From the NCBI GenBank assembly GCA_039583695.1, contig JAVKSL010000003.1, forward strand, positions 16,313-80,312: a stretch of DNA of 64,000 bases, given 5' to 3'. The DNA comes from Acidimicrobiales bacterium (GTDB lineage: Bacteria; Actinomycetota; Acidimicrobiia; Acidimicrobiales; JAJPHD01). A model generated the notes under the pieces. That model ran no database searches. It was not told where the DNA came from and was given only the letters and a program-made list of their open reading frames with translations. Position 1 is the stretch's first letter, and the number at the start of each line of letters is the position of its first letter. This document shows, piece by piece, positions 8,423-64,000 of this stretch. Made by a program: the position numbers and the translations under genes.

Positions 8423-8448
8423 GGCTTCTCGGACCAGGTAGCGTCGCG

Positions 8449-10540: not shown

Positions 10541-10548
10541 ATACCAAT

Positions 10549-13573: not shown

Positions 13574-13671
13574 TCGTCCCCCAACCAAAATCCCTTACGA
13601 GGATGATCGCGCCCGCCGGGGGAGGCGTCAAGCTCGTGGAGACTCGGGAAGCTAGCGACCTCGACTGCCGC

Positions 13672-44700: not shown

Positions 44701-44789
44701 GACGGTGGCCCCGCGGGCCTGGTAGAGTTGGTGCACCGCGGCTCCGACGATCCGCCACGATGGAGTTGCGCATCGAGGGAGGACGTGTC

Positions 44790-48133: not shown

Positions 48134-48270
48134 GCATCCAGTCTCGCATTCGAGCCGCCGGTCCGCTCCGTGCCATCGGCGAAAAACCAAGTCCTCCCTT
48201 CGCCCTGCCGTCTCGATAGGCGATTGGTCAGCGGACTTGCCGGTCCGGGCGGCTTCTGTCGGACAGAAGG

Positions 48271-48627
48271 CTATGCGGCGGGCTCAACGTCATGGAGAGC
48301 TGGAACGGCGCCAACGCAGTCATCCACTACGGCCGCGGTGGGGAGTTCACCACCAACCGCCGAGACGAGCAGGAGATGGGCGCTATCGCCCTGCACATCC
48401 TCCAAGCCGCCCTCGTGTACGTCGACACCCTCATGATCCAAGATGTCCTCTCCGACCCAGCGTGGAGCGGCGTCCTCACCGAAGAGGACCTCCGAGGGCT
48501 CACCCCGCCGTTCTGGACCCACATGTCGCCCTACGGAGACTTCCGGCTCGAGATGGACCAACGACTCGCCAGCGCCGCCCCAGCACTCGACCCCGACCGA
48601 ATGGGTGGCTCAGCCGGCCTCGGCTAG
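48271..48627 (+). mobile_element. Tn3-family transposase, extreme C-terminal fragment
   Basis: ..GLNVMESWNGANAVIHYGRGGEFTTNRRDEQEMGAIALHILQAALVYVDTLMIQDVLSDPAWSGVLTEEDLRGLTPPFWTHMSPYGDFRLEM matches the conserved Tn3 TnpA C-terminus. The upstream ~900 aa are absent. Confidence 0.65.
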
Positions 48628-48961: not shown

Positions 48962-49073
48962 CTGCGGGTCGCTGCGGTTCGGGGCCCGACTGGCGCGCCT
49001 TGGCTAGCATGCTGGACGCATGACTGTGCTTGGCGGAGCCGGGCCGGCGCGGCCCGGGGCGAGGAGAGGATTC

Positions 49074-50507
49074 ATGCATCGGCTCAGCGGTGAAGCCGCA
49101 GGATTCCTCTCTCTCGAGCTTCCCATCCAGCCGATGAGCATCATGGCGCTTGCCGTGCTGCGCCCGGCGAGCGACCCGGATGGGTCACCGGTCCCGCTCG
49201 ACCTGCCCTATGTGGGCCTTCACATGGCCTCTCGCCTGGATGAGCTGCCAGCCTTGCGATGGCGGGTCCAAACGGTGCCCTTCGGGCTGCACCAGCCTGT
49301 GCTCGTCGAGGACCAGGCCTTCGATCTGGGCTTTCACCTTCGCGAGCACGTCCTGCCAGCACCGGGATCTGCCGATCAGCTGGACCGCTACTGCGCCGGG
49401 CTCGCAGAGCAGGCACTTGACCGGCGCCACCCGCTCTGGCAGCTCGTCTTGATCCATGGGCTGCACGGCGGTAGGCAGGTCGTGGTGTTGCGCATCCATC
49501 ACTGCCTCATGGATGGCTTTGCCGCCGTCGAGACCCTTTCGCGCATCTTCCCCCTAGGCGAGCACCAACCGGCGGCCCCTGGCCCTGAGTGGTATCCCGG
49601 TCCTCCCCCCCGTGCGTGGCGCCTGATCGTCGACGCTGCGGGTGGCCAGGCCCAGTCCGCAGCTCGCCTCCCGGCTCTTGTCAGCAAGACCCTCCGCAAC
49701 AACGCCGCCCTCAGGGCCCATCGAGCTGGGTCGGTCGCCGTACCCAAGCCACGGGTGGACGCGCCGCCGAGCCTGATCAACCAGGCCTATACCGCGGACC
49801 GTCGATTTGCCCGGGCCTCACTGTCCCTCGCGGCGGTAGGCCTGGTCAAGGAGGTGGCCGGCGCGAGCGTCAACGACGTAGCTATGGCGGTCGTTGCCGG
49901 GTCCCTGCGGTCCTACCTCCAGGCCCGGAGCGCTCTGCCGGCGAGGCCTCTGGTGGCGGCTGTGCCTGTGGGAATGGAGGAGCCGGGCGCGGCCCTCCGG
50001 ACCCACGGCAACCGCTTCTCCGGTCTGGTGACGTCGCTGGCGACCGACGTCGCTGAGCCATGGGACCGGCTCCGAGCCATCACCGCGGTGACTGCGGAGG
50101 CGAAGCGTCAGCTCGCAGTTCGCGGTCCCGAGCTGCTCCCGGACTGGCTCGACGTGCTGCCGCCGGCATTGGTCGAGCACGCCGTGCGGCATTACCATCG
50201 CAGGCGTCGCCGGCATCCGGCCAGGCTCGACGTCAACGTGGTGATCTCCAACCTTCGCGGCCCGAGCCCGGGACGCTACCTCGGTGCAGCCGTCGTCGAG
50301 GAGATGTACGTGGCCGGGCCGCCGAACAATGGCGTGGGGATCAACGTCGCCCTGATGGACTACGGAGACCGCCTGTTCTTCGCCCTCATGTGCTTCGCGG
50401 ACTCCGTCGAAGTGCCAGGGGAGCTGGTAGGGGGGCTCCATCACGCTCTGGATGACTTGGTGAGGGCCGCCGGGGCTATTGCTCCGCGCCGGCCCTCCCT
50501 GCGCTGA
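49074..50507 (+). CDS. wax ester synthase/diacylglycerol acyltransferase (WS/DGAT)
   Basis: SD GAGGAGAGGA then ATG 49074. Catalytic HHCLMDGFA (HHxxxDG). C-terminal ..NVVISNLRGP.. ..VGINVALMDYGDRLFF... Confidence 0.85.
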   Translation: MHRLSGEAAGFLSLELPIQPMSIMALAVLRPASDPDGSPVPLDLPYVGLHMASRLDELPALRWRVQTVPFGLHQPVLVEDQAFDLGFHLREHVLPAPGSADQLDRYCAGLAEQALDRRHPLWQLVLIHGLHGGRQVVVLRIHHCLMDGFAAVETLSRIFPLGEHQPAAPGPEWYPGPPPRAWRLIVDAAGGQAQSAARLPALVSKTLRNNAALRAHRAGSVAVPKPRVDAPPSLINQAYTADRRFARASLSLAAVGLVKEVAGASVNDVAMAVVAGSLRSYLQARSALPARPLVAAVPVGMEEPGAALRTHGNRFSGLVTSLATDVAEPWDRLRAITAVTAEAKRQLAVRGPELLPDWLDVLPPALVEHAVRHYHRRRRRHPARLDVNVVISNLRGPSPGRYLGAAVVEEMYVAGPPNNGVGINVALMDYGDRLFFALMCFADSVEVPGELVGGLHHALDDLVRAAGAIAPRRPSLR

Positions 50508-51690
50508 GGCTGGCTTGGGCGGCGAGCCTCTGGAGGCGCTCGGCTGCACCGGCGGGGCCGGGAGCAGCGGCAAAGGATCGACGCACGCGGTCGACCTCCG
50601 CCCTCATGCCCGGATCTGACAGCGCGCTCTGAACGGCCGCCCGCAGCTCGGGGGCGCGAACCCTGAGGAAGCTGATGCGGATGCCGCAGCCAGCCCGAAC
50701 GACCTGGTCGGCCACGATCGGCTGATCGTCTCTGATGGGCGCCATCACCAAGGGTACGCCCGCGGCCAGGCTCTCGCACACGGTGTTGTGCCCGGCGTGG
50801 GTCACCACCGCCTGCATCTGACCCAAGAGGGCGAGCTGGGGCACCTTGGGCCGGACCAGGATGTTGGCTGGCGTATCCGCCACAAGCCCGGGCGGCGCCA
50901 CGATCACCGCCTGGACGGGCAGGGATCCGAGCGCCTCGACCGCCACCGCGAAGAAGCGCTCACCTTCGATGTGGTTTATGGTGCCCAGGGACACCAGCAC
51001 TGCGGGCAGCCTGGCGTCCAGCCACGACCAGGGAAACTCGACTGTCTCGACGCGGCCAGCAATCGATGGCCCGATGAGCTCGTAATGCTCTGGAAACGCC
51101 CGCTCGCTGCTGACAAGGGCTTCGGTGGTGAACGCCAGCACCAGATACGGGGAGAAGAGAAGGTCCCCATCCTCGGCCAGTGCCCTGGGCAGGCCGGCTT
51201 CCAGCTGCAGGGCCAACCGGGCATCCCGGATGGCCCGGTCGACGAGGGGCCAGCCTGCCAGTGGGTCGGCAAGCTCTGCGGAAGTGGTGGCCAACGTGGC
51301 CCAGCGCAGGCCCAGCTTGCGGGCAACGACCGCACCGGCCAGCGCTTGCTGGTCGACCACCATGACGTCGGGCCGGAACTTTTCGACGGCCGCCCCGACA
51401 CCCTCGATCATGGCCCGGGCCATGGGAAGCAGCACCTCGAACCACAAGAACTTGAAGGCCGCGGCGGCACCCATCCCGAGGGCGCGGCCATTCAAAGTGT
51501 CGGCGAGCTCCTCCGCGTAGTCGGGAGCGGTCGGGAAGAAGCGCTGTCCTGCAGGCAGCAGCTCGTTGAGGACGCCTGGGATGCCGGCCCAGGCCGTCTC
51601 GTGGCCACGGCGAGCAAGCTCAGCTCCCACGGGGATGGTCGGGTAGATGTGGCCGGCGAAGTCGGGCACGACGAAGAGGAACCTGGCCAT
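50476..51690 (-). CDS. GT1-family (UDP-glycosyltransferase, MGT/macrolide-GT-like) glycosyltransferase
   Basis: MARFLFVVPDFAGHIYPTIPVGAELARRGHE... C-terminal donor-binding ..VVTHAGHNTVCESLAAGVPLVMAPIRDDQP... Confidence 0.85.
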   Translation of the reverse strand: MARFLFVVPDFAGHIYPTIPVGAELARRGHETAWAGIPGVLNELLPAGQRFFPTAPDYAEELADTLNGRALGMGAAAAFKFLWFEVLLPMARAMIEGVGAAVEKFRPDVMVVDQQALAGAVVARKLGLRWATLATTSAELADPLAGWPLVDRAIRDARLALQLEAGLPRALAEDGDLLFSPYLVLAFTTEALVSSERAFPEHYELIGPSIAGRVETVEFPWSWLDARLPAVLVSLGTINHIEGERFFAVAVEALGSLPVQAVIVAPPGLVADTPANILVRPKVPQLALLGQMQAVVTHAGHNTVCESLAAGVPLVMAPIRDDQPIVADQVVRAGCGIRISFLRVRAPELRAAVQSALSDPGMRAEVDRVRRSFAAAPGPAGAAERLQRLAAQASLSAGRAGAEQ

Positions 51691-51699: not shown

Positions 51700-52491
51700 T
51701 CAGGTGCAGGGGGTGAGAGCTTTGTTCTGGCCCCTGACCCACTTGACGGCATGATCGCGAACCACCAGGCTGGCCTCGGCGAGCACACGGTGGGTGCACC
51801 CCGGGACGATCAGCTGCTGGCATCCGGGAATGTGGCGGTCACGCGCCCCAGCCTCCTCAACGACATCCGAACCGCTGCCGTAGATGCTGAACACCGGGCA
51901 GCGAAGCGCCTCCAGCGACTCGCTCGGCAGGTGTGCCTCGGTCAAGAGGTCCTCGAGCACGCTGGTAGTCCGGAGCAAGGTCTCGGCGCGTTGCGCCCAG
52001 CGGATACGCGACGGGCTGTTGCCGATCACGCTCTGGCGGTCGGCTTCGTCGTCGCCAAAGCCGACGATGCCCTCTGCCAGGCGCCGGCCCCAGCCCTCTC
52101 CGGAGAGGTGTGGCTCGATGAGGAACAGGCTTGCCACACGCTCGGGGTGGTGATGAGCGAAGAAAAGCGCCACGATTCCCCCGAAGCTGTTGCCGAAAAG
52201 ATGAACAGGTTCGTGGATGTCCCAGGCATCAAGCAGGCCAACCAGGTCGGCGAGATGGTCGGCGACGGAGTAGCTGCGCTCCGGCACCTCGGAGCGACCG
52301 TGGCCGCGCAGGTCGTAGAGGTACACGTCTGACTCGACTGCAACTCCGCCCACGATGGTGAGGTAGAAGCTCGACATGTCCACCGAGAGCCCGTGAACCA
52401 TCACGACCTTGGGCCGGCGCTCGCAAGGTCCGGGGGCCCTTTGCAGCACCTCGACATGGAAGCGCAGGCCGTTGGCCACCGTCTCAGACAC
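51700..52491 (-). CDS. alpha/beta-hydrolase (candidate chain-releasing thioesterase/esterase)
   Basis: GTG 52491 lies 8 nt inside the ACP 3' end. ..VVMVHGL.. Nucleophile elbow GNSFGG (GxSxG). ..PGCTHRV.. is the His region. Confidence 0.8.
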   Translation of the reverse strand: MSETVANGLRFHVEVLQRAPGPCERRPKVVMVHGLSVDMSSFYLTIVGGVAVESDVYLYDLRGHGRSEVPERSYSVADHLADLVGLLDAWDIHEPVHLFGNSFGGIVALFFAHHHPERVASLFLIEPHLSGEGWGRRLAEGIVGFGDDEADRQSVIGNSPSRIRWAQRAETLLRTTSVLEDLLTEAHLPSESLEALRCPVFSIYGSGSDVVEEAGARDRHIPGCQQLIVPGCTHRVLAEASLVVRDHAVKWVRGQNKALTPCT

Positions 52492-52816
52492 CGGGGACCC
52501 TGTTGATCGAGTCCACGATGAGCTCCACCAGGCTGCCGACGCGCAGCGCGATGATCGTGTCCAGGTCCATGCCGGCCAGCCAGGCCACAAAGTCCACCTT
52601 CTCGCCGTAGTGTGCCCGGAGCTCTTCTGCCAGGATGACGAACTGGATGCTCTCCAGGCAGAGGTCTTCACTGAACGAAGATTGCATGCCGACGTCTTCC
52701 TCGGCGAGGAAGTCGGTGCCGATGACCTTGACGAGCATCTGGGTCACCTCGAGGAGGACCTCCTCGGGTCGGGCTGGAGCAGCGCTGCGGTCAAAGATGG
52801 GTGAGGACGTTGACAA
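52484..52816 (-). CDS. discrete acyl carrier protein
   Basis: ..PEEVLLEVTQMLVKVIGTDFLAEEDVGMQSSFSEDLCLESIQFVILAEELRAHYG.. is an ACP four-helix pattern with the phosphopantetheine Ser in LES(I). The start is uncertain. TTG 52816 is preferred (AAAGGGG SD, 26-nt overlap with PKS-B). Alternatives are GTG 52747 and ATG 52738. Confidence 0.65.
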   Translation of the reverse strand: MSTSSPIFDRSAAPARPEEVLLEVTQMLVKVIGTDFLAEEDVGMQSSFSEDLCLESIQFVILAEELRAHYGEKVDFVAWLAGMDLDTIIALRVGSLVELIVDSINRVPGV

Positions 52817-55800
52817 CCTCAGCCCCTTTCGTCGTGAGTGAGACGACGGGCTCGTTCGATGCGGCTGACCCCAGGCGGGTCCAGCCGACGACAAGCTCGC
52901 CTCCGTCGTGGCCCTGGACGATCTCGGTGTCCACCCACCGCTCGCCGACGCAAAGGGACAGGCCTGCGACAGCGGTCACCTCGAACTGCCTCGGGCGTCC
53001 GGACAGGCCCGTGCGGGCGGCCTTGGCGACCGCCTCCTTGGCGACCCAGAACCGGGTGACCCAACGGTCGCGCTCTGCGTCGGGGAGCAGATCCTGCTCG
53101 GCGGGAGTGAGCACAAGTCGATCGAAGCGACCATCACGCGGCGCCACCGACTCGATATCGATGCCGACGGACGCCCCCTCGCTCGCGATGGCGACGGCAA
53201 GGGTACTGCTGTGCGCCAGGGAGATCTGCAGGTCGGCGGGGAAGCTCCCCCGGACCAGTGGCTCGCCGTGCTCGCCGGTGGCGAGCTCGACCTCCGCCGG
53301 GAACACCGGCCCCGCACCGTGGCTCCACAGCCAGTCGCGCACGGCGTCCTTTGCCGCAATCCTGCCCAGGAACCACTGCCTCTGTCTGAGTGGGTTGAAC
53401 GCCGCGTACTGGGCCTGCTCGGGGCCGGTCAGGTACTGGCGCATCACCAGGTCGCGAGAGGCCGTCCGGCGCCACCGCTCCGGGGCCAGCACCCAGCCAC
53501 CGGGCTGGGCCTGTGACGCGAGGTGATGCTCGGGGAAGCGCAACAACTCCCACAACACCTCGTCAGTCTCGAAGCGATGCTCGGTCCAACCGATCACCCT
53601 GGCGAACAGCCGTTTGCCCACGACCAGGTCGAGGTCGGCGCGTATGGTGGTGTCCAGGACACTTGTGATGCGCGCGGTGCAGTCCACCACAGTACCGACG
53701 GGGGGCTCGGGCCCGAAGAGATCGATGGACTCCACCCCTGTTGGCAGCACGATGCGGTCAAGGCCGGTACGGGCCATGGCCCAGTAGCCGACCAGCTGGC
53801 CGGCACCGTCGAGGAGGGAGCCCGGCGCGTCGAGGACCTGGATTCGTCCCCGGATGCCGGCGTCGCAGATCCCTTGGATATCGCGTACGGCCTGGAACTG
53901 CGGTCCGTGAAACATCCACCTCTGCTCGTAGAGCTCCTCGGCGCCGATCACGGAGGGCTCCTCGTGGGGCAGGAGAGCCGGCTGCACCTCGGGGGCGCTG
54001 GGTGCTCGCTCGCTCGTGACCACCCTCGCCTGCGAGTAGCCCTCGATCGCCACCCTGACCTGGTCTGTGCCCTCGGTGACTGCGCTCAGCACGACATCGG
54101 CGGTCGGCACCACAGCCAGCCAGCGCGTGGAGCGGATCCGCTCCACCCTGGTGACCACACGGTCGGGTCGCATAGCCGCTGCGCGCTCGACGAGCCAGCC
54201 GATCATGGTGGTGAGCGGGACCACCGGGAACCGGTCGGAGATCGAAGGCCATCGATCTCGCTGGCGCACCAGGCAATGGTCTGCCAGCCACGGGAGCTCC
54301 TCGACGGAGATGTGCCGCTCGATCCGGTTGGGCGAGGCCGGCGCCGGAGCCGCTGGGGCGAGTGCAGCGGGGACTGGAGCCGCTGGGGCCGGAGCCGTTG
54401 GGGCTGGCGCGGGGACCGGAGCCCCTGGGGCCGGAGCCGCTGGGGCTGGCGCGGGCGGGGTGGCCGGGAGTGGAGAGGCTCCGGGAAGGCGTCCCAAGGG
54501 TGGAAGGGCCGACAGCGACACCAGCGGGGTGCCGAGGAGCACCGGGCGCGTGTGGATCGAAGAGGCGGGGGCAGCGGGCAGACGCGGGCGGTGCCCAGCG
54601 ACCTCCGTGTCGGGCATGAGCCGATCGAAGCAGACGTCGGCTCCCTCGACCCACAGCGCGGCCGCCACCCTACGCAGCTGCTCCAACCCTTGCGACCTGG
54701 CGGTGGCGGCGGCGGCAGCCAGATGATCGCGTTCCGCCAGCGTGTCGTCCACGAAGGCCGCCAGCGAGCCGATGCCGACCTGGACGAACGCGCGGACCCC
54801 CTCCTCGTGCAGGCGCAGCACCAGCTCACGGAAGCGAACGGGCTCGACCAGGTGGCGGATCGCCAGGTCTCGTACGGCCTCGGGATCGTCGGGATAGGGC
54901 TCGCACGTCGTCGCCGACCACAACGGTAGCGAGGCCGCCTCGAGCGGGAGGAGGGCCAGCGCCTCGCGTACCCTGGCGAGCTGCGGTGAGAACATAGGTG
55001 AGTGAAACCCCGACCGGAACGCGAGCTTGGAGGCGATGACCTGTCGTGCCAGTAGACACCCCAAGGCCTGCTCGATGGCTGCCTCGGTTCCGCACAGGAT
55101 CGACTGGTGGGGACAGTTGTCATGAGAGACCACCACTTCAGCGATCCCCTGGATGGCCGCAGCTGCCTCTTCGGCAGCGCAGCCTGCCGAGGCGTACACC
55201 AACCCGGGCATGCCAATGGCGGCCGGGTCGAGCCGGGCCAGAAAGGGCCCAGCTGTCTGCGGACGGACCATGCCGGCGGTGACCATCCCGTTCCATTCGC
55301 CGATGCTGTGGCCAGCGACCATGTCGGGGCGCACTCCGATCCCGCCCAGGGCGCTATCCAGCAACCGGCCCAGAGCGAATACGGCCAGCCCGTGTCGACC
55401 TAGCTCGGCGGTATCGGCCGGCTCCGGAGGGAGCAGGCCAAAGCGGGCGGCCACGTCGTCGAGCCGTGCGGGCATGGTGGCCTCGATCCCAGGGAAGAGG
55501 AACGCCACGCTCCCCCCGCCGGCCACAAGGGGCCGGGGGCTGAACCAGATATCCATGCGGCCACGCCAGGCTTCCCCCCTGGACACCACCTTGCGGGCCA
55601 GCGCCATCCGCTGGGGCGTCGGGCTGACGACGGCGAGGCGCAAGGAGCCCCGGGCGCCCGGGGCGCATGAGGCCTCGCCGAGCTGGGCCAGTAACGATCG
55701 GACGTCCTCGGCGGCGCAAAGGACGAGAGCAGGTGTGCCGGGCGTCCGGCGCCTGAGCACGCTGAGCCCAGCCCGGTGCTCCTCGAGCACGGCGTGGGCG

Positions 55801-57185
55801 TTGATGCCGCCAAAGCCGAAGCTGTTGACACCGGCCCGGCGGGGGTCTCGGGTCGCCTCCCACGGGCTGGTCTGGGTGACCGGGCGGAAGCGGGTCCCGG
55901 CCATCGCTGGGTGCGGGTCCTCACAGTGCAGCGTGGGTGGCAGGGTCTGGTGGTGGATGGCCAAAGCCGCTTTTATGAGCCCCGCTGCCCCCGCCGCGGG
56001 CATGGCATGGCCGATCATGGACTTCACTGCGCCGATCGGCACCGGGCCGAGGCCGCCGCCTCCACTGCCCGAGGTCCCGGACCCGAACACCTCAGCCAGG
56101 GTGGCCAGCTCTGCCGCGTCGCCAGCTGGGGTGGCCGTGCCGTGGGCCTCGATCAGCCCGATAGTGGAGGGATCCAGCCGGGCCGCCTCCCATGCCCGGC
56201 GCACGGCCAGCACCTGTCCGGCGACGTTGGGGCGCATGACCGTGGAATCGCGGCCGTCACTGGACATGCCGATACCCCGGATCACGGCGTAGATCCTGTC
56301 GTCGTGGCGCTCTGCGTCGGCCTCGCGCTTGAGGACCATCATCCCGGTTCCCTCGCCGATCAGCAAGCCGTCTGCGGCGCGTGAGAAGGGCCGGCTGTTG
56401 CCACTGGCGCTGATTGCTCCCAGGTGGGAGAACACCCCCCACAAGGTGAGATCGTGGCAGTGGTGCACGCCACCGGCGATCACCACGTCGCAATCGCCGC
56501 TGTGCAGCAGGCGCACCGCGTGATCGATGGCGATGAGGGAGCTGGCGCAGGCGGCGTCCAACGTGTAGGCAGGGCCGGAGAAGTCGAAGCGATTGGCGAT
56601 TCGCGATGCCACCAGGTTGGGTACCAACCCGACAGCGTCGTCGCGCTGGTAGGGGCCTAGCTGGTGCTGAAACTCCGCCCGCACGGCGCGCAGCTCGTCC
56701 TCAGTGACGTCGGGGACCAGCTGGCGGAGGCTGTGCACGAGCTGCTCCGCCATGCGCACCAGTTGGTCGAGCCGGCCCTGTCCGGCGCTCAGGTACCCGC
56801 CCCGGCCGATGACGATCCCGACCTTCTCGCGCCTGGCTATAGCGTCGGGGCCGCCCGCGTCCTGGATGGCAGCCGCCGCGGTGCTCAAGGCGATGAGCTG
56901 GTCCGGCTCGGCAGCCGCCACCGATACAGGCATCATCCCGAACGCCACCGGATCGAACAGCGCCAGCCCGTCCACGAAGCCACCGCGGCGGCAGGCGAAG
57001 CGGTCGAGAGCAGAGGAGTCGCCCTCGAAGAAGACCGGGTCGAGGCGCCCCGCTGGCACCTCGCGGATCGCGTCGACACCATGAGACAGGTTGTGCCAGT
57101 AGGCATCGAGGTCAGCAGCTCCAGGGAAGACGGCGCCCATCCCGACTATGGCGATACCGGACCTGTTGGAGTCGGTGTATCTCAA
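52791..57185 (-). CDS. type I PKS/Pfa-like synthase subunit B: KS-AT-(Pro/Ala linker)-DH-PPTase
   Basis: TTG 57185 in a TTGA overlap. KS ~55775-57165 (DAACASS, EAHGTAT, GHAMPAAG). AT ~54750-55515 (GHSIGEW). Linker 54335-54480. PKS-type DH ~53520-54330 (LADHCLV..P, LLDGAGQL). Sfp-type PPTase ~52880-53400 (VGIDIE, FWVAKEAVAKA). Confidence 0.9.
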   Translation of the reverse strand: MRYTDSNRSGIAIVGMGAVFPGAADLDAYWHNLSHGVDAIREVPAGRLDPVFFEGDSSALDRFACRRGGFVDGLALFDPVAFGMMPVSVAAAEPDQLIALSTAAAAIQDAGGPDAIARREKVGIVIGRGGYLSAGQGRLDQLVRMAEQLVHSLRQLVPDVTEDELRAVRAEFQHQLGPYQRDDAVGLVPNLVASRIANRFDFSGPAYTLDAACASSLIAIDHAVRLLHSGDCDVVIAGGVHHCHDLTLWGVFSHLGAISASGNSRPFSRAADGLLIGEGTGMMVLKREADAERHDDRIYAVIRGIGMSSDGRDSTVMRPNVAGQVLAVRRAWEAARLDPSTIGLIEAHGTATPAGDAAELATLAEVFGSGTSGSGGGGLGPVPIGAVKSMIGHAMPAAGAAGLIKAALAIHHQTLPPTLHCEDPHPAMAGTRFRPVTQTSPWEATRDPRRAGVNSFGFGGINAHAVLEEHRAGLSVLRRRTPGTPALVLCAAEDVRSLLAQLGEASCAPGARGSLRLAVVSPTPQRMALARKVVSRGEAWRGRMDIWFSPRPLVAGGGSVAFLFPGIEATMPARLDDVAARFGLLPPEPADTAELGRHGLAVFALGRLLDSALGGIGVRPDMVAGHSIGEWNGMVTAGMVRPQTAGPFLARLDPAAIGMPGLVYASAGCAAEEAAAAIQGIAEVVVSHDNCPHQSILCGTEAAIEQALGCLLARQVIASKLAFRSGFHSPMFSPQLARVREALALLPLEAASLPLWSATTCEPYPDDPEAVRDLAIRHLVEPVRFRELVLRLHEEGVRAFVQVGIGSLAAFVDDTLAERDHLAAAAATARSQGLEQLRRVAAALWVEGADVCFDRLMPDTEVAGHRPRLPAAPASSIHTRPVLLGTPLVSLSALPPLGRLPGASPLPATPPAPAPAAPAPGAPVPAPAPTAPAPAAPVPAALAPAAPAPASPNRIERHISVEELPWLADHCLVRQRDRWPSISDRFPVVPLTTMIGWLVERAAAMRPDRVVTRVERIRSTRWLAVVPTADVVLSAVTEGTDQVRVAIEGYSQARVVTSERAPSAPEVQPALLPHEEPSVIGAEELYEQRWMFHGPQFQAVRDIQGICDAGIRGRIQVLDAPGSLLDGAGQLVGYWAMARTGLDRIVLPTGVESIDLFGPEPPVGTVVDCTARITSVLDTTIRADLDLVVGKRLFARVIGWTEHRFETDEVLWELLRFPEHHLASQAQPGGWVLAPERWRRTASRDLVMRQYLTGPEQAQYAAFNPLRQRQWFLGRIAAKDAVRDWLWSHGAGPVFPAEVELATGEHGEPLVRGSFPADLQISLAHSSTLAVAIASEGASVGIDIESVAPRDGRFDRLVLTPAEQDLLPDAERDRWVTRFWVAKEAVAKAARTGLSGRPRQFEVTAVAGLSLCVGERWVDTEIVQGHDGGELVVGWTRLGSAASNEPVVSLTTKGAEVVNVLTHL
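54335..54480 (-). repeat. imperfect short tandem repeats encoding a Pro/Ala linker
   Basis: Repeated ggagccgctggggc(c/t)gg units. They encode PATPPAPAPAAPAPGAPVPAPAPTAPAPAAPVPAALAPAAPAPA between AT and DH. Confidence 0.7.
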
Positions 57186-60100
57186 GCTGTCAGCACCCCC
57201 TCAGGCCCGGCGTCGGTACTCGCCATGCCCCCCGCCACGTCGTGCCGGTCCGTTTGCGCCCGCATCACGATCACCGCTGCGCTCGACGGGGAGCCAAGGG
57301 CCAGCTCGCGCAAGATGCAGGCAACCCCGTCCTCGGGATCGATCAGTCCGACCCCACGTCGGGCAAACTCCCGCTCGAGGCTCTCCGACACCATCCCGGT
57401 GCCGCCCCACGGACCCCAGTGGATGCAAACGACCCGGTCGGCAACGGTCCTGTTGTGAGCCCAGGCCAGGGCTTCGAGGGCCTCGTTCGCGGCGGCATAG
57501 TCGATCTGGCCTCGGTTGCCGAATGCACCGGCCATGCTGCCGAACAGGATGACGAAGCGCAAACCGGGCCGCACAGCCCCCAGCAGGATCCGTGCGCCAT
57601 CGACCTTGGTGTCGTAGACGCGAGCAAAGGACTCGACGGTCTTGTCCGCCGCCAGACGGTCCTCGACCACCCCCGCCCCGTGGATGATGCCGTCGAGGCG
57701 GTCCCAACGGCGGTAGATGTCATCCACCAGGGCGCTCATCGCGGGTGTGTCGCGCACGTCGAGGGCGTGGTAGTTGACAGACCCGCCGCAGGCCTGGACC
57801 TCGGCCAGGGTGCGACGGAGCTGGCGCTGGGCCATGATCCGCCGGCAGTCGGACTCTATGGCGCTCGCGACGTTGTTGCCCGCGCCTGCCAGGAGCTGGC
57901 GCAACGCCTTGTGATCCGCACAGGCGGCGGTGGCTGGCGCCTCGGGCCCATCGGGCAACGGGGTCCGCCCGACGAGCTCGAGATGGCAGCCCTGGTGAGC
58001 CAGGGCGACAGCCACTGCCGCGGTGATTCCCCGGCCGCCGCCCGTGATAAGCACAACATCGCCCGCCTCGGGGCGAACAGCGCAGCCGCCTTGCTGGACG
58101 AGCGGTTCGGGGACCGTGCGAAGCCGCAGGCGGCGCCCTGAGCGATAACCCACTTCCACCAACAAGTCGGTGGAGGTCAGCTCGGCTAGCAGCTGGCGCG
58201 CGGCGAGCTCTGGTGCGTCCCGGGGGTCGAGGTCCACCGAACGAACCCTGAGGTCGGGGTACTCCCGAGCCAGGCTCCTGGCCATACCCCGCACGCCAGC
58301 GCCCGGCGGGACCTGCCCCGCTTCGCTGGCGAGCACATCGCGACCGAAGCTCCCCCCGGTCCCGGTGACCATCAGGAGGAATCGCAGACCAGCTAGGCGG
58401 CCGACTAGCTGGGAGAACACCGTTGCGGGCGGGGCTGCGCAGGCTGAGAGCGCTCCGAGATGGATGAGGTGCTCGACAGCCCACGGCTCATCCAGGGCGC
58501 CGACGCTGGCGTGCGCCCCGCACCGTCGGAGCAGCTCTGCGAGAGCCTGGGCGATCCCGGCTCCGTCGTCGGTGATGAAAAGGCTCTGCCCAGCCAGCGC
58601 CGCGTCGCTGCCGAACGGCGAGCCGGCCTGCTCGACCCTCTGGACGAAGCGCGCCGCTCGTAGGGGTGGCTGGGGAACAGGGGCAGCAGCTGGTCTCATG
58701 GGCTCCGGAGGGACGTCGGCCCGGGCCACGATCCACTCCACGATGGCCGACAGGGTCTTGAGGACCGAAAGCTCCTCGACCATGGAATCGTCGAGCCCAT
58801 CAGCTCCTGTGCTGAGGCCCACCCGGCCCACGAGGTCCCCGACGATCTCTATGCGCTTGATCGAGTCGATGCTGAGATCGGCCTCCAGGTCGAGATGCGC
58901 CCCGAGCATCTCGACCGGGTAGCCGGTCCGTTCGCTCACCACCGCGACGACGGCTGCCAGCAGGTCCTCGCGGCTGCGGGGTGGCCGTGGCGCAATGGCG
59001 CGAGTCAGCTCCACCTCCGGGCCGGGCGGGCTGGTAGCGCCGACCGCGGCCCCGTTCGAGTCGACTGGAAGCATCGCCGGCACCACAAGCGGGAGTACAG
59101 GCATCGCGGGTGGTGTCACGGGCGCCATCGGCGGACCGTTCCGGGCATCCAGGTAGCGGGCTATGGCCACCTGACCGGCGCTGGCCACCTGGCTGAGCAT
59201 GCGCATGTACTCGAGCATCACGGGGTCGCCCTCCGGCATCGGCACCGCCAAGGCCAAGGGGGCGGAGGCGGTGGGGGCGGTGGGGGCGGTGGGGGCGGAG
59301 GCGGTGGGGGAGGAGGCGGTGGGGGAGGAGGCGGTGGGGGCGGAGGCGGTCGGGGCGGTCGAGGCGGAGCGGATGCCTCGAAGCTTCGTCGCTGGCTGCA
59401 AACCGCCCGCCACCTGGGTGCCGTCGGGGCCGCGCACCAGGTGACCGTCGATCGCCCACACCCCCGCAGTCGATTGCCGGGCCCCGATCTGGGCTATGTC
59501 CCGACCCTCGAAGAGGGGGGCGAGGAGGAGCGGCACCCCGGCGACACCAAGGGAGGCTACGGCGTGAAGGAGCTGCTCGATCCCGTGGACACCGGGCGCA
59601 TCGACGCAGATGCTCTGGTGGGGCCGGCCGGCGAGGATCTGGCCCACCAGGCGGGTGAGGACCTGGCCGGGTCCGGTCTCGACGAAGGTGCCAATACCCG
59701 AGTCGTACATCGCTTCGACCTGCTCTCGAAATCGCACCGGGTTGTCGATCTGCGCGGCGAGGGTCCGCCGGATGCCGGCGGCGTCGTTGGGGTAGGCGGT
59801 GGCCGTGAGGTTGGACCACACTGTCAGAGCCGGGGAGCAGATCTCGACCTTGTCGAGCGCCGTCGCGAACCTGGTGGCTGCGGCGCCCATGAGCGGGCTG
59901 TGGAAGCCACACGACACCGGTAGCGCACGGTTGGCCAGTCCCTGCGCGGCCAGCCACCTTGCGGCCTCGGCCACGTCGCGCGCCGGACCCGAGATGACCA
60001 CCTGGTTGGGCGAGTTGTCGTTGGCCACGACCAGGCCTGGCCAGGCTCCCACCAGCGCGGCCACCCGCTCAGCGGGTGCGGCGACGGCGACCATTGCGCC

Positions 60101-63100
60101 GGGGTCGTGCGGGCACGACTCTGCCATCGCCTCGGCCCGCTGCTCGCTCAGGCGGATGAGGTCTGCCGCGTCGAACGCTCCGGCGGCCGACAGGGCCACC
60201 ATCTCTCCATAGCTGTGACCACCGAGGGCATCGGGGACCACACCCAGGCGGTCGAGCAGCCGGGCCACCGCCAGCCCGGCCATCCCCAGGGTGGGCTGGG
60301 CCACGCGGGTGTCGTCCTGGGCAACCCGCTGGCCTTCGGTCCGACCCGGAACCGCGGAGGTCGGCGGGAACATGAGTGTGAGATAGGACTCGCCCAGACG
60401 GAGGAGCTCGTGCAGCCAGGGAAAAGCCACGAACAGCTCCGCCAGCATGGCGGGACGTTGGCTGCCCTGCCCGGGGAAGAGGAAGGCCAGCCCCCCCGGC
60501 CCGGCCCTGTCGGCGCTGAGATAGACCCCCTGGCCCGCACATCCGGCGGCTGCTGCGGCGAGCTTGGCCCGCAGGTCTTCCATGCCCGTGGCCACGATCG
60601 CCGCGCGGGTCGGACCCGATCCCCGGCACCAAAGGTCGCCGGCCAGATCGCGCAACCGGGCCCCGTTTGGCTCGTCGAGTCGACGGGTCAGGCCCTCGAT
60701 CTGCTCGGCGAGGTCCCGTCGATCTTCGCCGCGAAAGCAGAACAGCTCTGCAGGCCAGCGCTCCAGGCCGTGGGCGGCGCGATCGCGGTCGTGAGAATCC
60801 ATGACCACATGGAAATTGGATCCGCCGAACCCGAACGCGCTGACACCCGCGCGCCGGCGCGTCTCCGACCACGGCAGGGCCGTCGCGCTGAAGGTGAATG
60901 GGCTGGTGAAGGGGTCGTAGGCTGTGCTCGGATGGGTGATGTGCGCGCTCGGGGGGCGCACGGCGTGGTACAGGGCCAGGCTTGCTTTGACGAGCCCGGC
61001 CATGCCCGCCGCGCATTTGGTGTGCCCGATCTGGGCTTTCACGGAGCCGAGGGTGCAGGAGCCCGGCGCGCTGCCCGCATCGGAGAAGAAGCCCGTGAGA
61101 GTCGACAGCTCGGTCCGGTCGCCGACGACTGTCCCGGTGCCGTGGGCCTCGACGAGGCCGACCGTTGCTGGTGAGGCTCCCGCCCGCTGGTAAGCCCGCT
61201 GGAGGGCCACCCTCTGGCCTTCGCCCCGCGGGGCGGTCAGCCCGAGGCCGCGGCCGTCGCTCGACGCCCCGATGCCCTTTATGACCGCGTAGATGCGGTC
61301 ACCGTCGCGGGTGGCGTCGGCCAGTCGTTTGAGCACCACGCAGGCCACACCTTCGCCGAGGACGATCCCGTCGGCGTCCTCGTCGAAGCTCTTGCAGGCG
61401 CCGGTCGGCGACAGGGCGCCGACGCTGGCGAATAGCTGGTAGTCGTAGATGCCGTTGTGGAGGTCAGCCCCGCCGCACAGGACCATGTCGCTTCCGCCGC
61501 CGCCCAGCTCCTGGCAGGCCAGATGGATCGCGGCCAGGGAGGCTGCGCAGGCGGCGTCGACGGAGTAGTTGGCCCCACCGAGGTCGAGCCGGTTGGCGAT
61601 GCGCCCGGCAACCACGTTGCTCAGCACCCCGGGGAAGGAGTCCTCGGTCAGCGCCGGCAGGTGTTCGTCGAGGGCAGGAGGCAGCGAGCCGAGATAGCCT
61701 GGAGCGAGGGCCCGGAAGACATAGGCACTGGAAAGGTCCGATGCGCCCTCGACGCCGAAGATCACCGAGGTGCGTGAGCGGTCGAACCACCGTCTGGCAT
61801 AGCCGGCATCGGCGAGGGCGTTGGCCGCAACATCCAGGCTGAGCAGCTGGACCGGCTCGATCGCCCCCAGGGACGAAGGCGGGATCCCGTATTTCATCGG
61901 GTCGAACGGGGCCGCTCCCAGGAAGCCACCCCAGCGTGACGGGGTGACGGTCTCCGCTGGCCCCATCGCCTCCGCCGAGCAGTACAGCTCGGCGTCCCAC
62001 CTCCCGGCGGGGACCTCGCCCACGTGGTTGGTGCCGGCGACGATGTTCGCCCAGTATTGGGCGACATCCTCAGCGCCAGGAAACAGGCAGGCTATGCCTA
62101 TCACGGCCACGTCGAGCGGTGCGGCCAGGGGGGCCTCGGCCAGGAGCGCGCCGTCCAGCACGGCGGCGCTGGCCACCGACACGTCGTGGTGGAGGGTGGC
62201 AATAGTCGTTGGTTCGCTCCGCAGGGTGGCCACCTCTCCGATCATGTAGAGGCCTTCGCGGCGCTGCTGGTCCTCGTCGACCTCGACCAGGTGGTCCCCG
62301 TCACGCCTTAGGCCCTTGGCCGCCATCCGCAGGCGTCCGAGATTGAGGTCCTCGAGAGCGGCCCAGCGGTCGGGTCCGGTTACGCCCGCTGCCTCCAGCG
62401 CCCTGCGCTCATCGTCGAAGCGACGCAGAAATGGGGTCTGTGCGCAGCGGGTGCTGTGGCCCGGAGACGTCTCGAGCAGCGCCGTGGCCTCACAGGCTAT
62501 CGCCGCCGCCTGGAAAGGTTCCCTTATGGCCCCGGTCGACACGGCCTCTTGGGTGAACAGGTAGGCGGTCCCCATAAGCAGGCCGATGCGGGCACCTCGC
62601 TCTGCCAGCGGCGCCGTCATGGCTGCGACCATCGCGGCGGACCGAGCGTCGTGGATGCCACCGGCGAAGAGCAGGTCCATGCCCTCGACGTCGCCCTCGA
62701 GCAGTTGGGTTACCTGTTGCTCCCAGAGCACGAAGCTGGACCTGGGACCGACGTGGCCACCGCACTCGCGACCCTCGAAGACGAATCGCCGCGCTCCCTG
62801 CCTGACGAACAGCGCGAGCAGCCCGGGCGAGGGAACGTGCAGGAAGGTGGCGATGCCCGCCTCTTCGAGAGGGCGCGCCAAGGATGGCCGGCCGCCGGCG
62901 ATGAGCGCGGCTGTCGGGCGGGCTTCCAGGACAGCTGCCAGCTGCCCGGCCCGAAGCTCGGGGGGCACGAAGCCGAGGATGCCCGCTCCCCAAGGCCGGC
63001 CGGCCAGCGCGGTGCTGGTCTCGGCGAGCAGTGCGCGGACCGCCTCCGGCGTCATCAGGGCCAGAGCCAGGAAGGGCAGGCCGCCCCCTTGCGCCACGGC

Positions 63101-64000
63101 CAGAGCGAACTCCGGGCGGTCGCTGACCCTAGTCATGGGGCCTTGGACGATCGGATAGCGCAGCCCGAAAGCGGCGGCGAAGGCCGACCCCGATCCGAGC
63201 ACCTGGCTGGCGGCAGCCGAACGCAGCTGGGACCTGATGGCGCTGCGCACCGCATGGACCACGCCTCCGCCAGTGTGGAACCTCTCGTGCATCCTCGCCG
63301 CGAAGGCCGCATCCTGGCCGGCTGGGAGCAGCGCGGTGGCAAGCTCGACCCCGAGACGCGACGCCACCCCTGCAGGATCTGTGTCCTCGGCGGTGTCGCC
63401 AGCAGCGATGCCCGGTCGGACCAGAAGCCGGTGACCGCCCAACACCGCAGTCTCGCTGCCGTCCATGGAGGCGATTGCGGCGCGCACCTCGGCGACCAGG
63501 TTCATCTCCCTCACTAGGGCGAGCTGCGCATCCAGCACGACGCCGGTGGCGCCGCCCGCGATCGCGGCCGCGGCCGTGTGCAGTCCGATGCCCCCCTGGC
63601 ACCACAGGGGAACATCCAGTGCCGCGACGAGCTGTTGGAGCAGGACGAATGCCCCGGTCCCTCCGACGCGGCCCCCGCTCTCGCTGCCTTTGGCTACGAG
63701 GCCGTCGGCGCCCTTGTCGACGGCGTCGCGTCCTGAGCCCAGCGAGGTCACCTCCACGATCACCCGACGGTCACCCCAACGCTCCAACGAGGCTTGGCAC
63801 AGCGCGGACCCGCCAGCCAGGACCACGGTGCTGACTGCCGCGGGCAGCTCCGAGGGTGCGACGACATCGGTGTCGCCGACCCGGATACCGAAGGTGGCGT
63901 CCCTGTCAATACCGGCGGCACAGCTGGCGATGGCGGCATGCGCGTGGGCGGCACAGGGCCCGACGTCGAGCACACCGAAGGCCCCCGCTCGGACAAGCGC
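57182..64000 (-). CDS. type I PKS/Pfa-like synthase subunit A (5'-truncated by window edge): ER'-ER-KS-AT-ACP-KR
   Basis: The frame stays open to 64000 (..ALVRAGAFGVLDVG..). FMN/NMO-type domain 1 ~63400-64000+ (KGSESGGRVGG). PfaD-like ER ~62400-63180 (YPIVQGPMTRVSD, GRECGGHVGP). KS ~60790-62115 (VDAACAASL, EAHGTGT, GHTKCAAG). AT ~59640-60500 (GHSYGE). ACP ~58760-58990 (LSIDSIKR). KR ~57300-58650 (ITGGGRGIT, YAAANE). Confidence 0.9.
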   Translation of the reverse strand, partial: ALVRAGAFGVLDVGPCAAHAHAAIASCAAGIDRDATFGIRVGDTDVVAPSELPAAVSTVVLAGGSALCQASLERWGDRRVIVEVTSLGSGRDAVDKGADGLVAKGSESGGRVGGTGAFVLLQQLVAALDVPLWCQGGIGLHTAAAAIAGGATGVVLDAQLALVREMNLVAEVRAAIASMDGSETAVLGGHRLLVRPGIAAGDTAEDTDPAGVASRLGVELATALLPAGQDAAFAARMHERFHTGGGVVHAVRSAIRSQLRSAAASQVLGSGSAFAAAFGLRYPIVQGPMTRVSDRPEFALAVAQGGGLPFLALALMTPEAVRALLAETSTALAGRPWGAGILGFVPPELRAGQLAAVLEARPTAALIAGGRPSLARPLEEAGIATFLHVPSPGLLALFVRQGARRFVFEGRECGGHVGPRSSFVLWEQQVTQLLEGDVEGMDLLFAGGIHDARSAAMVAAMTAPLAERGARIGLLMGTAYLFTQEAVSTGAIREPFQAAAIACEATALLETSPGHSTRCAQTPFLRRFDDERRALEAAGVTGPDRWAALEDLNLGRLRMAAKGLRRDGDHLVEVDEDQQRREGLYMIGEVATLRSEPTTIATLHHDVSVASAAVLDGALLAEAPLAAPLDVAVIGIACLFPGAEDVAQYWANIVAGTNHVGEVPAGRWDAELYCSAEAMGPAETVTPSRWGGFLGAAPFDPMKYGIPPSSLGAIEPVQLLSLDVAANALADAGYARRWFDRSRTSVIFGVEGASDLSSAYVFRALAPGYLGSLPPALDEHLPALTEDSFPGVLSNVVAGRIANRLDLGGANYSVDAACAASLAAIHLACQELGGGGSDMVLCGGADLHNGIYDYQLFASVGALSPTGACKSFDEDADGIVLGEGVACVVLKRLADATRDGDRIYAVIKGIGASSDGRGLGLTAPRGEGQRVALQRAYQRAGASPATVGLVEAHGTGTVVGDRTELSTLTGFFSDAGSAPGSCTLGSVKAQIGHTKCAAGMAGLVKASLALYHAVRPPSAHITHPSTAYDPFTSPFTFSATALPWSETRRRAGVSAFGFGGSNFHVVMDSHDRDRAAHGLERWPAELFCFRGEDRRDLAEQIEGLTRRLDEPNGARLRDLAGDLWCRGSGPTRAAIVATGMEDLRAKLAAAAAGCAGQGVYLSADRAGPGGLAFLFPGQGSQRPAMLAELFVAFPWLHELLRLGESYLTLMFPPTSAVPGRTEGQRVAQDDTRVAQPTLGMAGLAVARLLDRLGVVPDALGGHSYGEMVALSAAGAFDAADLIRLSEQRAEAMAESCPHDPGAMVAVAAPAERVAALVGAWPGLVVANDNSPNQVVISGPARDVAEAARWLAAQGLANRALPVSCGFHSPLMGAAATRFATALDKVEICSPALTVWSNLTATAYPNDAAGIRRTLAAQIDNPVRFREQVEAMYDSGIGTFVETGPGQVLTRLVGQILAGRPHQSICVDAPGVHGIEQLLHAVASLGVAGVPLLLAPLFEGRDIAQIGARQSTAGVWAIDGHLVRGPDGTQVAGGLQPATKLRGIRSASTAPTASAPTASSPTASSPTASAPTAPTAPTASAPLALAVPMPEGDPVMLEYMRMLSQVASAGQVAIARYLDARNGPPMAPVTPPAMPVLPLVVPAMLPVDSNGAAVGATSPPGPEVELTRAIAPRPPRSREDLLAAVVAVVSERTGYPVEMLGAHLDLEADLSIDSIKRIEIVGDLVGRVGLSTGADGLDDSMVEELSVLKTLSAIVEWIVARADVPPEPMRPAAAPVPQPPLRAARFVQRVEQAGSPFGSDAALAGQSLFITDDGAGIAQALAELLRRCGAHASVGALDEPWAVEHLIHLGALSACAAPPATVFSQLVGRLAGLRFLLMVTGTGGSFGRDVLASEAGQVPPGAGVRGMARSLAREYPDLRVRSVDLDPRDAPELAARQLLAELTSTDLLVEVGYRSGRRLRLRTVPEPLVQQGGCAVRPEAGDVVLITGGGRGITAAVAVALAHQGCHLELVGRTPLPDGPEAPATAACADHKALRQLLAGAGNNVASAIESDCRRIMAQRQLRRTLAEVQACGGSVNYHALDVRDTPAMSALVDDIYRRWDRLDGIIHGAGVVEDRLAADKTVESFARVYDTKVDGARILLGAVRPGLRFVILFGSMAGAFGNRGQIDYAAANEALEALAWAHNRTVADRVVCIHWGPWGGTGMVSESLEREFARRGVGLIDPEDGVACILRELALGSPSSAAVIVMRAQTDRHDVAGGMASTDAGPEGVLTA
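59261..59370 (-). repeat. 9/15-bp tandem repeats encoding (A/S)PTA(S) linker between AT and ACP
   Basis: ggcggaggcggtgggggcggtgggggcggtgggggcggaggcggtgggggaggaggcggtgggggaggaggcggtgggggcggaggcggt... It encodes TAPTASAPTASSPTASSPTASAPTAPTAPTASAP. Confidence 0.8.

Follow-up and report, generated by a model that had tools for sequence, protein, structure and literature searches.

A predicted C-terminal Sfp-type phosphopantetheinyl transferase on a KS-AT-DH protein in a PUFA-synthase-like locus of an Acidimicrobiales bacterium

The closest described relatives of the locus analyzed here are the Type M or secondary lipid synthases in which, going by the accessible text of the source papers, an ER-KS-AT-ACPn-KR protein is paired with a KS-AT-DH-PPTase protein whose 4′-phosphopantetheinyl transferase (PPTase) is of the Sfp type and carries the WxxKEAxxK motif. 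Shulse and Allen (2011; PMC3098273) list Renibacterium salmoninarum, S. avermitilis, Actinosynnema mirum and Frankia as Type M and report for Types M-T two PPTase motifs, x(G/D)xP (P1a) and hShxH (P1b′). C-terminal PKS-integrated Sfp-type PPTases of actinomycetes, SAV_7361 and Amir_2494 among others, have been described (Kim et al., 2018; PMC6042109), and a "fused pfaDA + pfaBC-PPTase" arrangement is set out in words in a 2026 paper for clusters of Aquimarina and Flavobacterium (PMC13291983). On the accessible text of these sources, the PKS-integrated PPTases SAV_7361 and Amir_2494 belong with the secondary lipid synthases that have the fused pfaDA and pfaBC-PPTase proteins. The Type M hosts are mostly high-GC actinomycetes and, as far as the same texts go, the Type M product is uncharacterized, as is that of the cassette described below.

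The window, a stretch of 64,000 nucleotides that was analyzed as a whole, encodes on its minus strand two large synthase subunits that, judged by domain content, constitute a PUFA-synthase-like secondary lipid synthase of the composition [ER-KS-AT-ACP-KR] + [KS-AT-DH-PPTase]. The first subunit, PKS-A (57182..64000, minus strand; its N-terminus lies beyond the window end), is a single ORF in which Pfam and NCBIfam delineate, in this order, a FabK/NMO-type ER, KS, AT, one ACP domain and KR; the ER is thus N-terminal to the KS-MAT-ACPn-KR series, as in the first subunit of Type M. The dedicated PfaD family model of NCBIfam does not match PKS-A, for which FabK alone registered. The attachment motif of the ACP domain, LSIDSIK, maps to 58856-58876, and the excised domain matches the Pfam PP-binding model with 25 bits; the Streptomyces orthologue of PKS-A is 2313 aa long. 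The second subunit, PKS-B, is a KS-AT-DH-PPTase protein and corresponds to the pfaBC-like protein with a PPTase that is the second subunit of Type M; HGEP at residues 1306-1309 and ISLAH at 1321-1325 are the P1a and P1b′ motifs of Types M-T. In the accessible text of the Type M literature, the match to Type M is one of described architecture and shared organisms rather than of reference sequences, and the ACP, α/β hydrolase and GT1 genes that follow the synthase in the window are not mentioned there. As a literal string, "KS-AT-DH-PPTase" was not found in the searchable literature. The fusion in PKS-B is nonetheless already known and common, and the locus is an ordinary member of a documented family, not a novel architecture.

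The PKS-B ORF (52791..57185, minus strand; 1464 aa) starts with a TTG that overlaps the TGA stop codon of PKS-A (TTGA). Its KS (residues 1-504; 55674..57185, minus strand) is matched by Pfam ketoacyl-synt, Ketoacyl-synt_C and KAsynt_C_assoc and has the Cys-His-His triad (DAACASS, EAHGTAT, GHAMP), and its AT (residues ~561-830; 54696..55505, minus strand), with the motifs GHSIGE and GFHSP, is matched by Pfam Acyl_transf_1 (57 bits) and by the NCBIfam FabD model and the AT region of PfaA. The PKS-type DH (residues ~955-1230; 53496..54323, minus strand) was delimited by Pfam PS-DH and family conservation, contains the conserved motifs LADH (H970), RWMFHGPxFQ and LLDxAGQL, and abuts the PPTase directly. 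The Pfam matches themselves extend over residues 10-422 (KS), 613-823 (AT) and 1065-1189 (PS-DH). At the other end, the C-terminal tail with the stop codon (52791..52877, minus strand; delimited by pLDDT and the family alignment) is predicted to be disordered, with pLDDT below 50 over the last ~24 residues, shows no conservation in the family alignment and contains, in another frame of its DNA, what is probably the first part of the ACP gene.

Judged by its motifs and its structural model, the C-terminal portion of ~205 residues of PKS-B (residues ~1231-1436; 52878..53495, minus strand; Pfam, AlphaFold, hhalign and conservation) is an intact monomeric two-lobed PPTase of the Sfp/HetI type and the WxxKEAxxK subtype. 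PF01648 (ACPS; curated cut-off 25 bits) matches the whole protein with 54.9 bits at residues 1339-1405 and the excised 222 aa with 60.3 bits (E 2e-16); 4PPT_N matches weakly at residues 1264-1334, and the nearest PPTase models in NCBIfam are HetI, AcpT and EntD. A motif search located ISLAHS (1321-1326), GIDIES (1341-1346) and WVAKEAVAK (1380-1388), which include the key residues H1325, D1343 and E1345 of GIDIE, and K1383-E1384 and K1388 of WxxKEAxxK. In hhalign alignments, D1343, E1345 and E1384 coincide with the Mg2+-binding residues D107, E109 and E151 of Sfp, and the other catalytic residues align with Sfp H90 and K155; these residues are invariant in all 15 aligned relatives, and the GxDxE and WxxKEAxxK motifs were found in most of 120 relatives. 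The sequence-only reading had recognized an Sfp-type PPTase fused C-terminally to a KS-AT-DH protein and had staked this on an HMM match and on conservation of the acidic Mg2+ ligands of GIDIE and KEA. It is borne out by the PF01648 matches (55-60 bits, above the cut-off), an Sfp-like model, the presence of the quoted motifs and the alignments; the interval that it proposed, 52880-53400, lies inside the domain but misses ~30 residues of the N-terminal lobe.

The AlphaFold model of the domain (pLDDT 87.6, pTM 0.84), the folded part of which comprises residues ~1231-1436, consists of two AcpS-like lobes, the pseudo-dimer of ~220-240 aa that distinguishes Sfp-type enzymes. In Foldseek searches, the best PDB match was Sfp 4MRT (TM 0.65/0.69, E 2e-10, 219 columns), followed by AASDHPPT, MuPPT, PptAb, PptT and PcpS, with the single-lobe AcpS enzymes ranking lower and covering just half of the model; with the profile of the domain, AcpS is matched two times, each lobe accounting for one match. 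Since domains of this integrated kind occasionally decay, PKS-B could carry a degenerate, purely structural remnant, with priming performed by a housekeeping PPTase. Nothing specific to PKS-B points to such decay, and it is very unlikely, and was rejected, given the confident model with the full two-lobe fold and the retention of H1325, D1343, E1345, K1383/E1384 and K1388 in relatives whose overall identity is no higher than ~40-55%.

The fused architecture is widespread. A scan of species-representative genomes yielded at least 570 confirmed sites with relatives of the PPTase domain, spanning Actinomycetota, Acidobacteriota, Myxococcota, Eremiobacterota and Pseudomonadota, and the fused PPTase family comprises 628 clusters at 50% identity (E<=1e-30); in nearly all of the best 150 of these clusters, the PPTase is at or near the C-terminus. 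Among the best 80 of the at least 570 sites, which include species of Streptomyces, Amycolatopsis and Actinomadura, PKS-A is found upstream in 62 of 62 testable loci, and the ACP, hydrolase and GT genes are found downstream in 67 of 69. The rarity of the fusion that was implied by the sequence-only reading is at odds with these numbers and with the description, in the accessible text of the 2018 paper, of integrated PPTases of this kind (PMC6042109). The window probably derives from a metagenome-assembled genome, in which an assembly error or a frameshift could merge two separate genes, one for a PKS and one for a PPTase. The probability of such an artefact is practically negligible and it was rejected, because the same unbroken ORF is conserved in complete genomes, on plasmids and at hundreds of other sites; uninterrupted PKS-B-type ORFs are present in complete replicons including Streptomyces chromosomes, Aquihabitans sp. 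G128 and the Streptomyces plasmid NZ_CP108492.1, on which the RefSeq counterpart of PKS-B is a single CDS of 1492 aa. Upstream of PKS-A, this plasmid encodes hypothetical proteins only. The closest named relative of the source lineage is an Acidimicrobiales MAG (70% identity).

Downstream of PKS-B lie three smaller genes, and the overlapping or abutting arrangement indicates that PKS-A, PKS-B, ACP, hydrolase and GT1 form one tight operon. The first encodes a discrete ACP (52484..52816, minus strand; 110 aa from the TTG at 52816, with an alternative GTG start at 52747), as had been noted from the sequence; the assignment draws on the PP-binding match, which at 19.1 bits is just under the Pfam cut-off of 20.8, on conservation, and on the RefSeq orthologue, which is annotated "acyl carrier protein". 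The presumed attachment residue is Ser56 (52649-52651) in the motif DLCLESIQF, where the site reads ES instead of DS; the serine is kept in 77 of 78 sequences (77 related loci and the window), and the atypical site (L/M)ESI(E/Q)F is strictly conserved in the related loci. The next gene encodes an α/β-fold hydrolase (51700..52479, minus strand; Pfam Abhydrolase_1, Abhydrolase_6 and a weak Thioesterase match), possibly a thioesterase or an acyltransferase by its sequence; its NCBIfam matches are generic, and one of them, to the OlsI O-acyltransferase, is weak but full-length. The operon is closed by a GT1 glycosyltransferase of the macrolide-glycosyltransferase family (50476..51690, minus strand; Pfam UDPGT and EryCIII-like_C), which scores 170 bits against TIGR01426 MGT, under the cut-off of that model. 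No specific NCBIfam equivalog was obtained for the ACP, the hydrolase, the GT or the DH.

The enediyne synthases (PKSEs) SgcE, CalE8 and DynE8 likewise are iterative type I synthases with a C-terminal PPTase after the DH, and their KS, AT, ACP, KR and DH activities recur at this locus; it was from this likeness that the sequence-only reading framed the locus. Taken further, the likeness would make the locus a split PKSE that produces a conjugated polyene and whose PPTase shares role and origin with those of SgcE and CalE8. PKSEs are also distantly related to PUFA synthases. However, the PKSE architecture is KS-AT-ACP-KR-DH-PPTase on one polypeptide, with neither an ER nor a second KS-AT (PMC3107222), and the window differs throughout: ACP and KR reside on the other subunit, which, as had also been read correctly, further contributes an ER, here of the FabK type, and a second KS-AT. 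The PKSE-specific ACP motif H(L/M)(S/T/N)S(I/L), of which HMSSI is an example, and the hot-dog thioesterase partner (PMC3107222) have no counterpart in the window, where the two ACPs carry LSIDSIK and LCLESIQ and where neither a thioesterase of the SgcE10/CalE7 type nor enediyne cassette genes are among the downstream genes; the ACP, α/β hydrolase and GT1 neighbors recur in the 67 of 69 related loci. Among the 150 best matches to the PPTase profile, the three that stood out most by length or by unusual make-up likewise lack the PKSE order. Furthermore, the closest PDB entry with known biology is 6RIW, presumably the PfaC KS-CLF entry, and DynE8 is absent from the top 60. With every testable PKSE feature failing in comparison with the published descriptions of SgcE, CalE8 and DynE8, a PKSE identity is unsupported and highly improbable, even more so than decay of the domain; the locus instead matches the fused pfaDA and pfaBC-PPTase arrangement.

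A nearer parallel is provided by the phenolic-lipid (ars) operon of Azotobacter vinelandii and the ars-like operon of Beijerinckia, in which, as in the window, a DH-PPTase didomain is partnered with an ER-KS-AT-ACP-KR protein. The ars-like operon on plasmid pBIND02 of Beijerinckia indica served as the homologue for the ArsA/ArsD architecture: its ArsA-like protein has the domain order of PKS-A, and its ArsD-like protein of 629 aa aligns collinearly with the DH-PPTase part of PKS-B (E 3e-60; 32% identity across 498 aa) but, in contrast to PKS-B, lacks an N-terminal KS-AT. The Azotobacter ArsD has been described as the PPTase by which ArsA, a fatty acid synthase, would be modified (PMC4824345). 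Besides a GT4, the ars operons encode two type III PKSs for which the acyl chain is the substrate, whereas the glycosyltransferase in the window is a GT1 and no type III PKS was found between or after the synthase genes in the Pfam and ORF annotation of the window; conversely, the free ACP and the α/β hydrolase of the window are missing from the ars operons.

The analysis shows what the domain is, its predicted fold and catalytic residues, how well it is conserved and which genes surround it. The best explanation, and one that we consider probable, is that the PPTase of PKS-B is an intact enzyme, fused to a two-subunit synthase, that primes the ACP of PKS-A and the free ACP in trans. The domain would use CoA and Mg2+, the latter predicted from the alignment and the model to be bound by D1343, E1345 and E1384, and would most likely transfer 4′-phosphopantetheine to the serine of the PKS-A ACP domain, the presumed main substrate, and probably to Ser56 of the free ACP. 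The choice of these two carriers is inferred from linkage. Because neither ACP resides on the PPTase-bearing polypeptide, the PPTase would have to act in trans, on other polypeptides of the same co-translated operon, for both of them and not just for one as initially suggested; the exceptions are rare relatives in which both synthase subunits are fused (P0062). Self-priming by the fused PPTase is a reasonable inference and would make the cassette independent of host PPTases.

A PPTase active on one carrier only, for instance the free ACP with its LESI site, with a genomic AcpS or Sfp enzyme priming the other, is unlikely, though less so than either decay of the domain or a PKSE identity. The atypical site and the sub-threshold PP-binding score of the free ACP could call for a dedicated enzyme, and the ars-like systems keep the DH-PPTase in the absence of a free ACP, which suggests that at least there an ACP of the PKS-A type is the substrate. 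Against such a restriction, Sfp-type enzymes are usually broad in substrate.

Once the synthase is primed by its fused PPTase, its acyl chain would be long and for the most part reduced, given that an ER and a KR are combined with just one DH, of the PKS type, and that no FabA-type DH/isomerase was detected. The conserved α/β hydrolase would release this chain and the GT1 would glycosylate it, so that by its domain content the cassette possibly produces a glycosylated long-chain lipid; no characterized glycolipid product of such a cassette was found in the searchable literature. It is tentatively conceivable, if rather doubtful, that the product of the five genes is a glycosylated very-long-chain lipid of a class not yet described and that the PPTase is fused because host enzymes cannot prime the unusual free ACP, in which case the cassette would be a self-sufficient, horizontally mobile lipid module. 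The fusion as such is of little import, integrated Sfp-type PPTases on such synthases being documented and common. With its activator built in, the cassette should lend itself well to heterologous expression that dispenses with sfp co-expression, and the identity of the product of this widespread soil-bacterial cassette would fill a gap to which Shulse and Allen (2011) as well as Kim et al. (2018) draw attention in their accessible text.

The locus shares with the pfaEABCD and cyanobacterial heterocyst-glycolipid synthases the KS, MAT, ACP, KR, second KS, AT, DH, FabK-type ER and Sfp/HetI-type PPTase, its best full-length NCBIfam models being PfaA (partial) and HetI, and, as in the hgl clusters, a glycosyltransferase is linked to the synthase. 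In canonical pfa and HetI systems, however, the PPTase stands alone as a protein of its own (Pseudoalteromonas DS-12 is given as an exception in the accessible text of PMC3098273), and a FabA-type DH/isomerase and a CLF are present, whereas the window has a single PKS-type DH and an AT in the place of the CLF; PUFA production was rejected because neither of the two was detected in the synthase. The α subunit of fungal FAS resembles PKS-B in being a megasynthase subunit that ends in an integrated PPTase. That PPTase is AcpS-type and, according to the accessible text of PMC6042109, acts on the ACP of its own polypeptide, whereas the PPTase of PKS-B is of the two-lobed Sfp type and the ACPs are located on other polypeptides.

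On the minus strand of the window, two very long, translationally coupled ORFs encode the upstream synthase subunit PKS-A (57182 to beyond 64000, the N-terminus being cut at the window end) and the downstream subunit PKS-B (52791-57185; 1464 aa), with the TTG start of PKS-B overlapping the TGA stop of PKS-A. Downstream of PKS-B, on the same strand and overlapping or almost abutting, are the genes for a free ACP (52484-52816; 110 aa, motif DLCLESIQF), an alpha/beta hydrolase (51700-52479) and a GT1 macrolide-glycosyltransferase-family enzyme (50476-51690). Domain-model searches identify in PKS-A a FabK/NMO-type ER, KS, AT, a single ACP (LSIDSIK) and KR, in agreement with the sequence-only reading, which placed ACP and KR on the other subunit, together with an ER, and a free ACP next to PKS-B.

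The ER region of PKS-A looks partially duplicated: Pfam NMO matches occur in three stretches, the FabK model covers residues 277-562 of the region, and an additional partial NMO-like segment occupies the N-terminal ~270 aa (63190-64000, minus strand), ahead of the FabK-like ER proper. Low-complexity inter-domain spacers are present in both subunits, namely a long Pro/Ala-rich linker (PAPAPAAPAPGAPVPAPAPTAPAPAAPVP...) between the AT and DH of PKS-B (approximately 54330-54450, minus strand) and a repetitive APTAS(A/S)PTAS linker ahead of the ACP of PKS-A (approximately 59100-59250, minus strand).

In PKS-B, Pfam matches delineate KS (residues 10-422), AT (613-823), PS-DH (1065-1189), a weakly matching 4PPT_N (1264-1334) and ACPS (PF01648, 1339-1405). 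With a cut-off of 25 bits, PF01648 reaches 54.9 bits when full-length PKS-B is searched and 60.3 bits (E 2e-16) when the 222-aa segment is searched by itself, and the nearest NCBIfam PPTase models are HetI, AcpT and EntD. [quoted passage not shown] An AlphaFold model (pLDDT 87.6, pTM 0.84), built from an alignment of the C-terminal 240 residues of 15 relatives, is ordered between about residues 1231 and 1436, beyond which comes a disordered tail. In a Foldseek search of the PDB, the top match is Sfp (4MRT; E 2e-10, 219 columns, TM 0.65/0.69), followed by human AASDHPPT, MuPPT, PptAb, PptT and PcpS; single-lobe AcpS enzymes cover only half of the model, and the sequence profile matches AcpS twice, once per lobe. 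H1325, D1343, E1345, E1384 and K1388 of PKS-B, aligned by hhalign to H90, D107, E109, E151 and K155 of Sfp (the Sfp sequence used agrees with the profile match to 1QR0), are invariant across the 15 sequences, and motifs of the GIDIE and WxxKEAxxK types were found in most of 120 homologues. The PF01648 match and the conserved Mg-binding acidic residues thus dispose of both refutations named in the sequence-only reading, lack of a PPTase HMM match and loss of those residues, and the domain is, as modeled, a two-lobed Sfp-type PPTase with an intact predicted active site.

This fusion is neither an artefact nor a one-off, as indicated by its wide distribution, conserved synteny and annotation in RefSeq as a single CDS. 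A protein search recovered more than 120 clusters (90% identity) of PKS-B-like proteins of ~1400-1550 aa, almost all with the KS-AT-DH-ACPS Pfam composition, at ~50% identity; the closest named relative (70% identity) comes from an Acidimicrobiales MAG. Scanning one genome per species with a family-specific peptide pattern yielded at least 570 confirmed sites, and the matches listed include Streptomyces, Amycolatopsis, Actinomadura, Nocardioides, Aquihabitans, many Pseudonocardiaceae and Acidimicrobiales MAGs, as well as Acidobacteriaceae, Myxococcia, Burkholderiales, Hyphomicrobium and Eremiobacterota. A PPTase-profile search run exhaustively gave 628 representatives (clusters at 50% identity) at E<=1e-30, and nearly all of the best 150 have the PPTase at the C-terminal end or close to it. 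When the domains from the window were mapped onto the best 80 of the at least 570 loci, PKS-A was directly upstream of PKS-B in all 62 loci whose upstream DNA extended far enough, and the ACP, hydrolase and GT genes followed directly on the same strand in 67 of the 69 with enough downstream DNA. The free-ACP serine is kept in 77 of 78 sequences, and PKS-A orthologues carry one (38 loci, as in the window), two (23) or four (1) tandem ACPs. The same five genes are found on a Streptomyces plasmid, where RefSeq annotates PKS-B as a single 1492-aa CDS.

In two metagenome proteins, P0062 and P0177, the ACP-KR end of PKS-A and PKS-B share a single ORF (ACP-KR-KS-AT-DH); P0062 has a GIDVE motif close to its C-terminus. 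Such ORFs would place ACP and PPTase on one polypeptide; they are either candidate fusions or gene-calling or assembly artefacts.

The inventory of the cassette is that of pfaEABCD, condensed into two polypeptides. According to PMC13291983, the fused pfaDA and pfaBC-PPTase arrangement resembles a secondary lipid synthase, itself uncharacterised, in Renibacterium salmoninarum. Shulse and Allen (2011; PMC3098273) assign Renibacterium, S. avermitilis, Actinosynnema mirum and Frankia to Type M and give x(G/D)xP and hShxH as PPTase motifs of Types M-T, which appear in PKS-B as HGEP and ISLAH. Kim et al. (2018; PMC6042109) listed "undefined type I PKSs" that carry a PPTase domain at the C-terminus (SAV_7361, SACE_2343, Amir_2494, AMED_4605 and others), placed these PKS-integrated PPTases in the Sfp-type clade and proposed that they may be widespread in Actinomycetales, with products unidentified. 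PKS-B is accordingly an added example, from an Acidimicrobiia-like lineage, of an already known, widespread architecture.

Of the sequence-only interpretation, which is upheld in part, the likeness to enediyne PKSE is not supported. As described (PMC3107222), PKSE carries KS-AT-ACP-KR-DH-PPTase on one chain, with an HMSSI-type ACP motif and a hot-dog thioesterase partner, whereas the cassette has an ER, places ACP and KR on PKS-A, shows canonical ACP motifs ((D/E)S(I)) and has ACP, hydrolase and GT genes next to PKS-B; on these grounds it was rejected as a member of the PKSE family. Of the best 150 PPTase-profile matches, the three that were longest or oddest are two-subunit fusions or long forms of PKS-B, and none of the three is PKSE-like.

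A counterpart of the DH-PPTase didomain is found on the 67-kb Beijerinckia indica plasmid pBIND02 (NC_010578.1), where an ars-like operon (2635-17137) encodes, in order, an ER-KS-AT-ACP-KR protein in which PP-binding matches fall in two stretches, a pair of type III PKSs, a DH-PPTase protein of 629 aa (named in RefSeq only as a PPTase superfamily protein), GT4 and ABC/RND transporter proteins. This DH-PPTase protein aligns collinearly with the didomain of PKS-B (32% identity over 498 aa, E 3e-60). In the characterised ars system of Azotobacter, ArsD is taken to be the PPTase that serves the fatty acid synthase ArsA (PMC4824345). Judging from sequence, DH-PPTase is therefore an evolutionary module common to ars-like proteins and PKS-B, to which PKS-B adds KS-AT ahead.

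An intact, strictly conserved two-lobed Sfp-type active site is thus linked in one operon to two carrier proteins. The PPTase would use CoA and Mg2+ to prime the ACP domain(s) of PKS-A and the free ACP, presumably both in trans, because both sit on polypeptides other than PKS-B; the earlier proposal of one priming in cis and one in trans is not borne out. The DH of PKS-B is PKS-type, with conserved LADH, HGPxFQ and LLDxAGQL motifs, and neither a FabA-type DH/isomerase nor a CLF was detected in the cassette. Together with the ER and KR, this single DH makes a long reduced chain more likely as the product than a PUFA or polyene. That the hydrolase and GT1 are conserved points to release and glycosylation of the product.

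A WS/DGAT wax-ester/triacylglycerol synthase gene (49020-50507, plus strand) converges on the operon end, sharing ~30 nt with the 3' end of the GT1 gene. Among 69 related loci, 6 (L009, L016, L028, L044, L066 and L078) likewise have such a gene next to the cassette, so that a functional link may exist in one subclade. Beyond it lie unrelated genes and transposase fragments of the Tn3-family DDE (48220-48627, plus strand) and IS110 (39686-40105, minus strand) types, and on the Streptomyces plasmid IS3 and IS6 transposases follow the cassette, consistent with horizontal movement. In another ORF (44658-45692, plus strand), a ClpX-type C4 zinc finger (residues 56-90) is, unusually, paired with a match to sigma-70 region 3 (residues 116-149).
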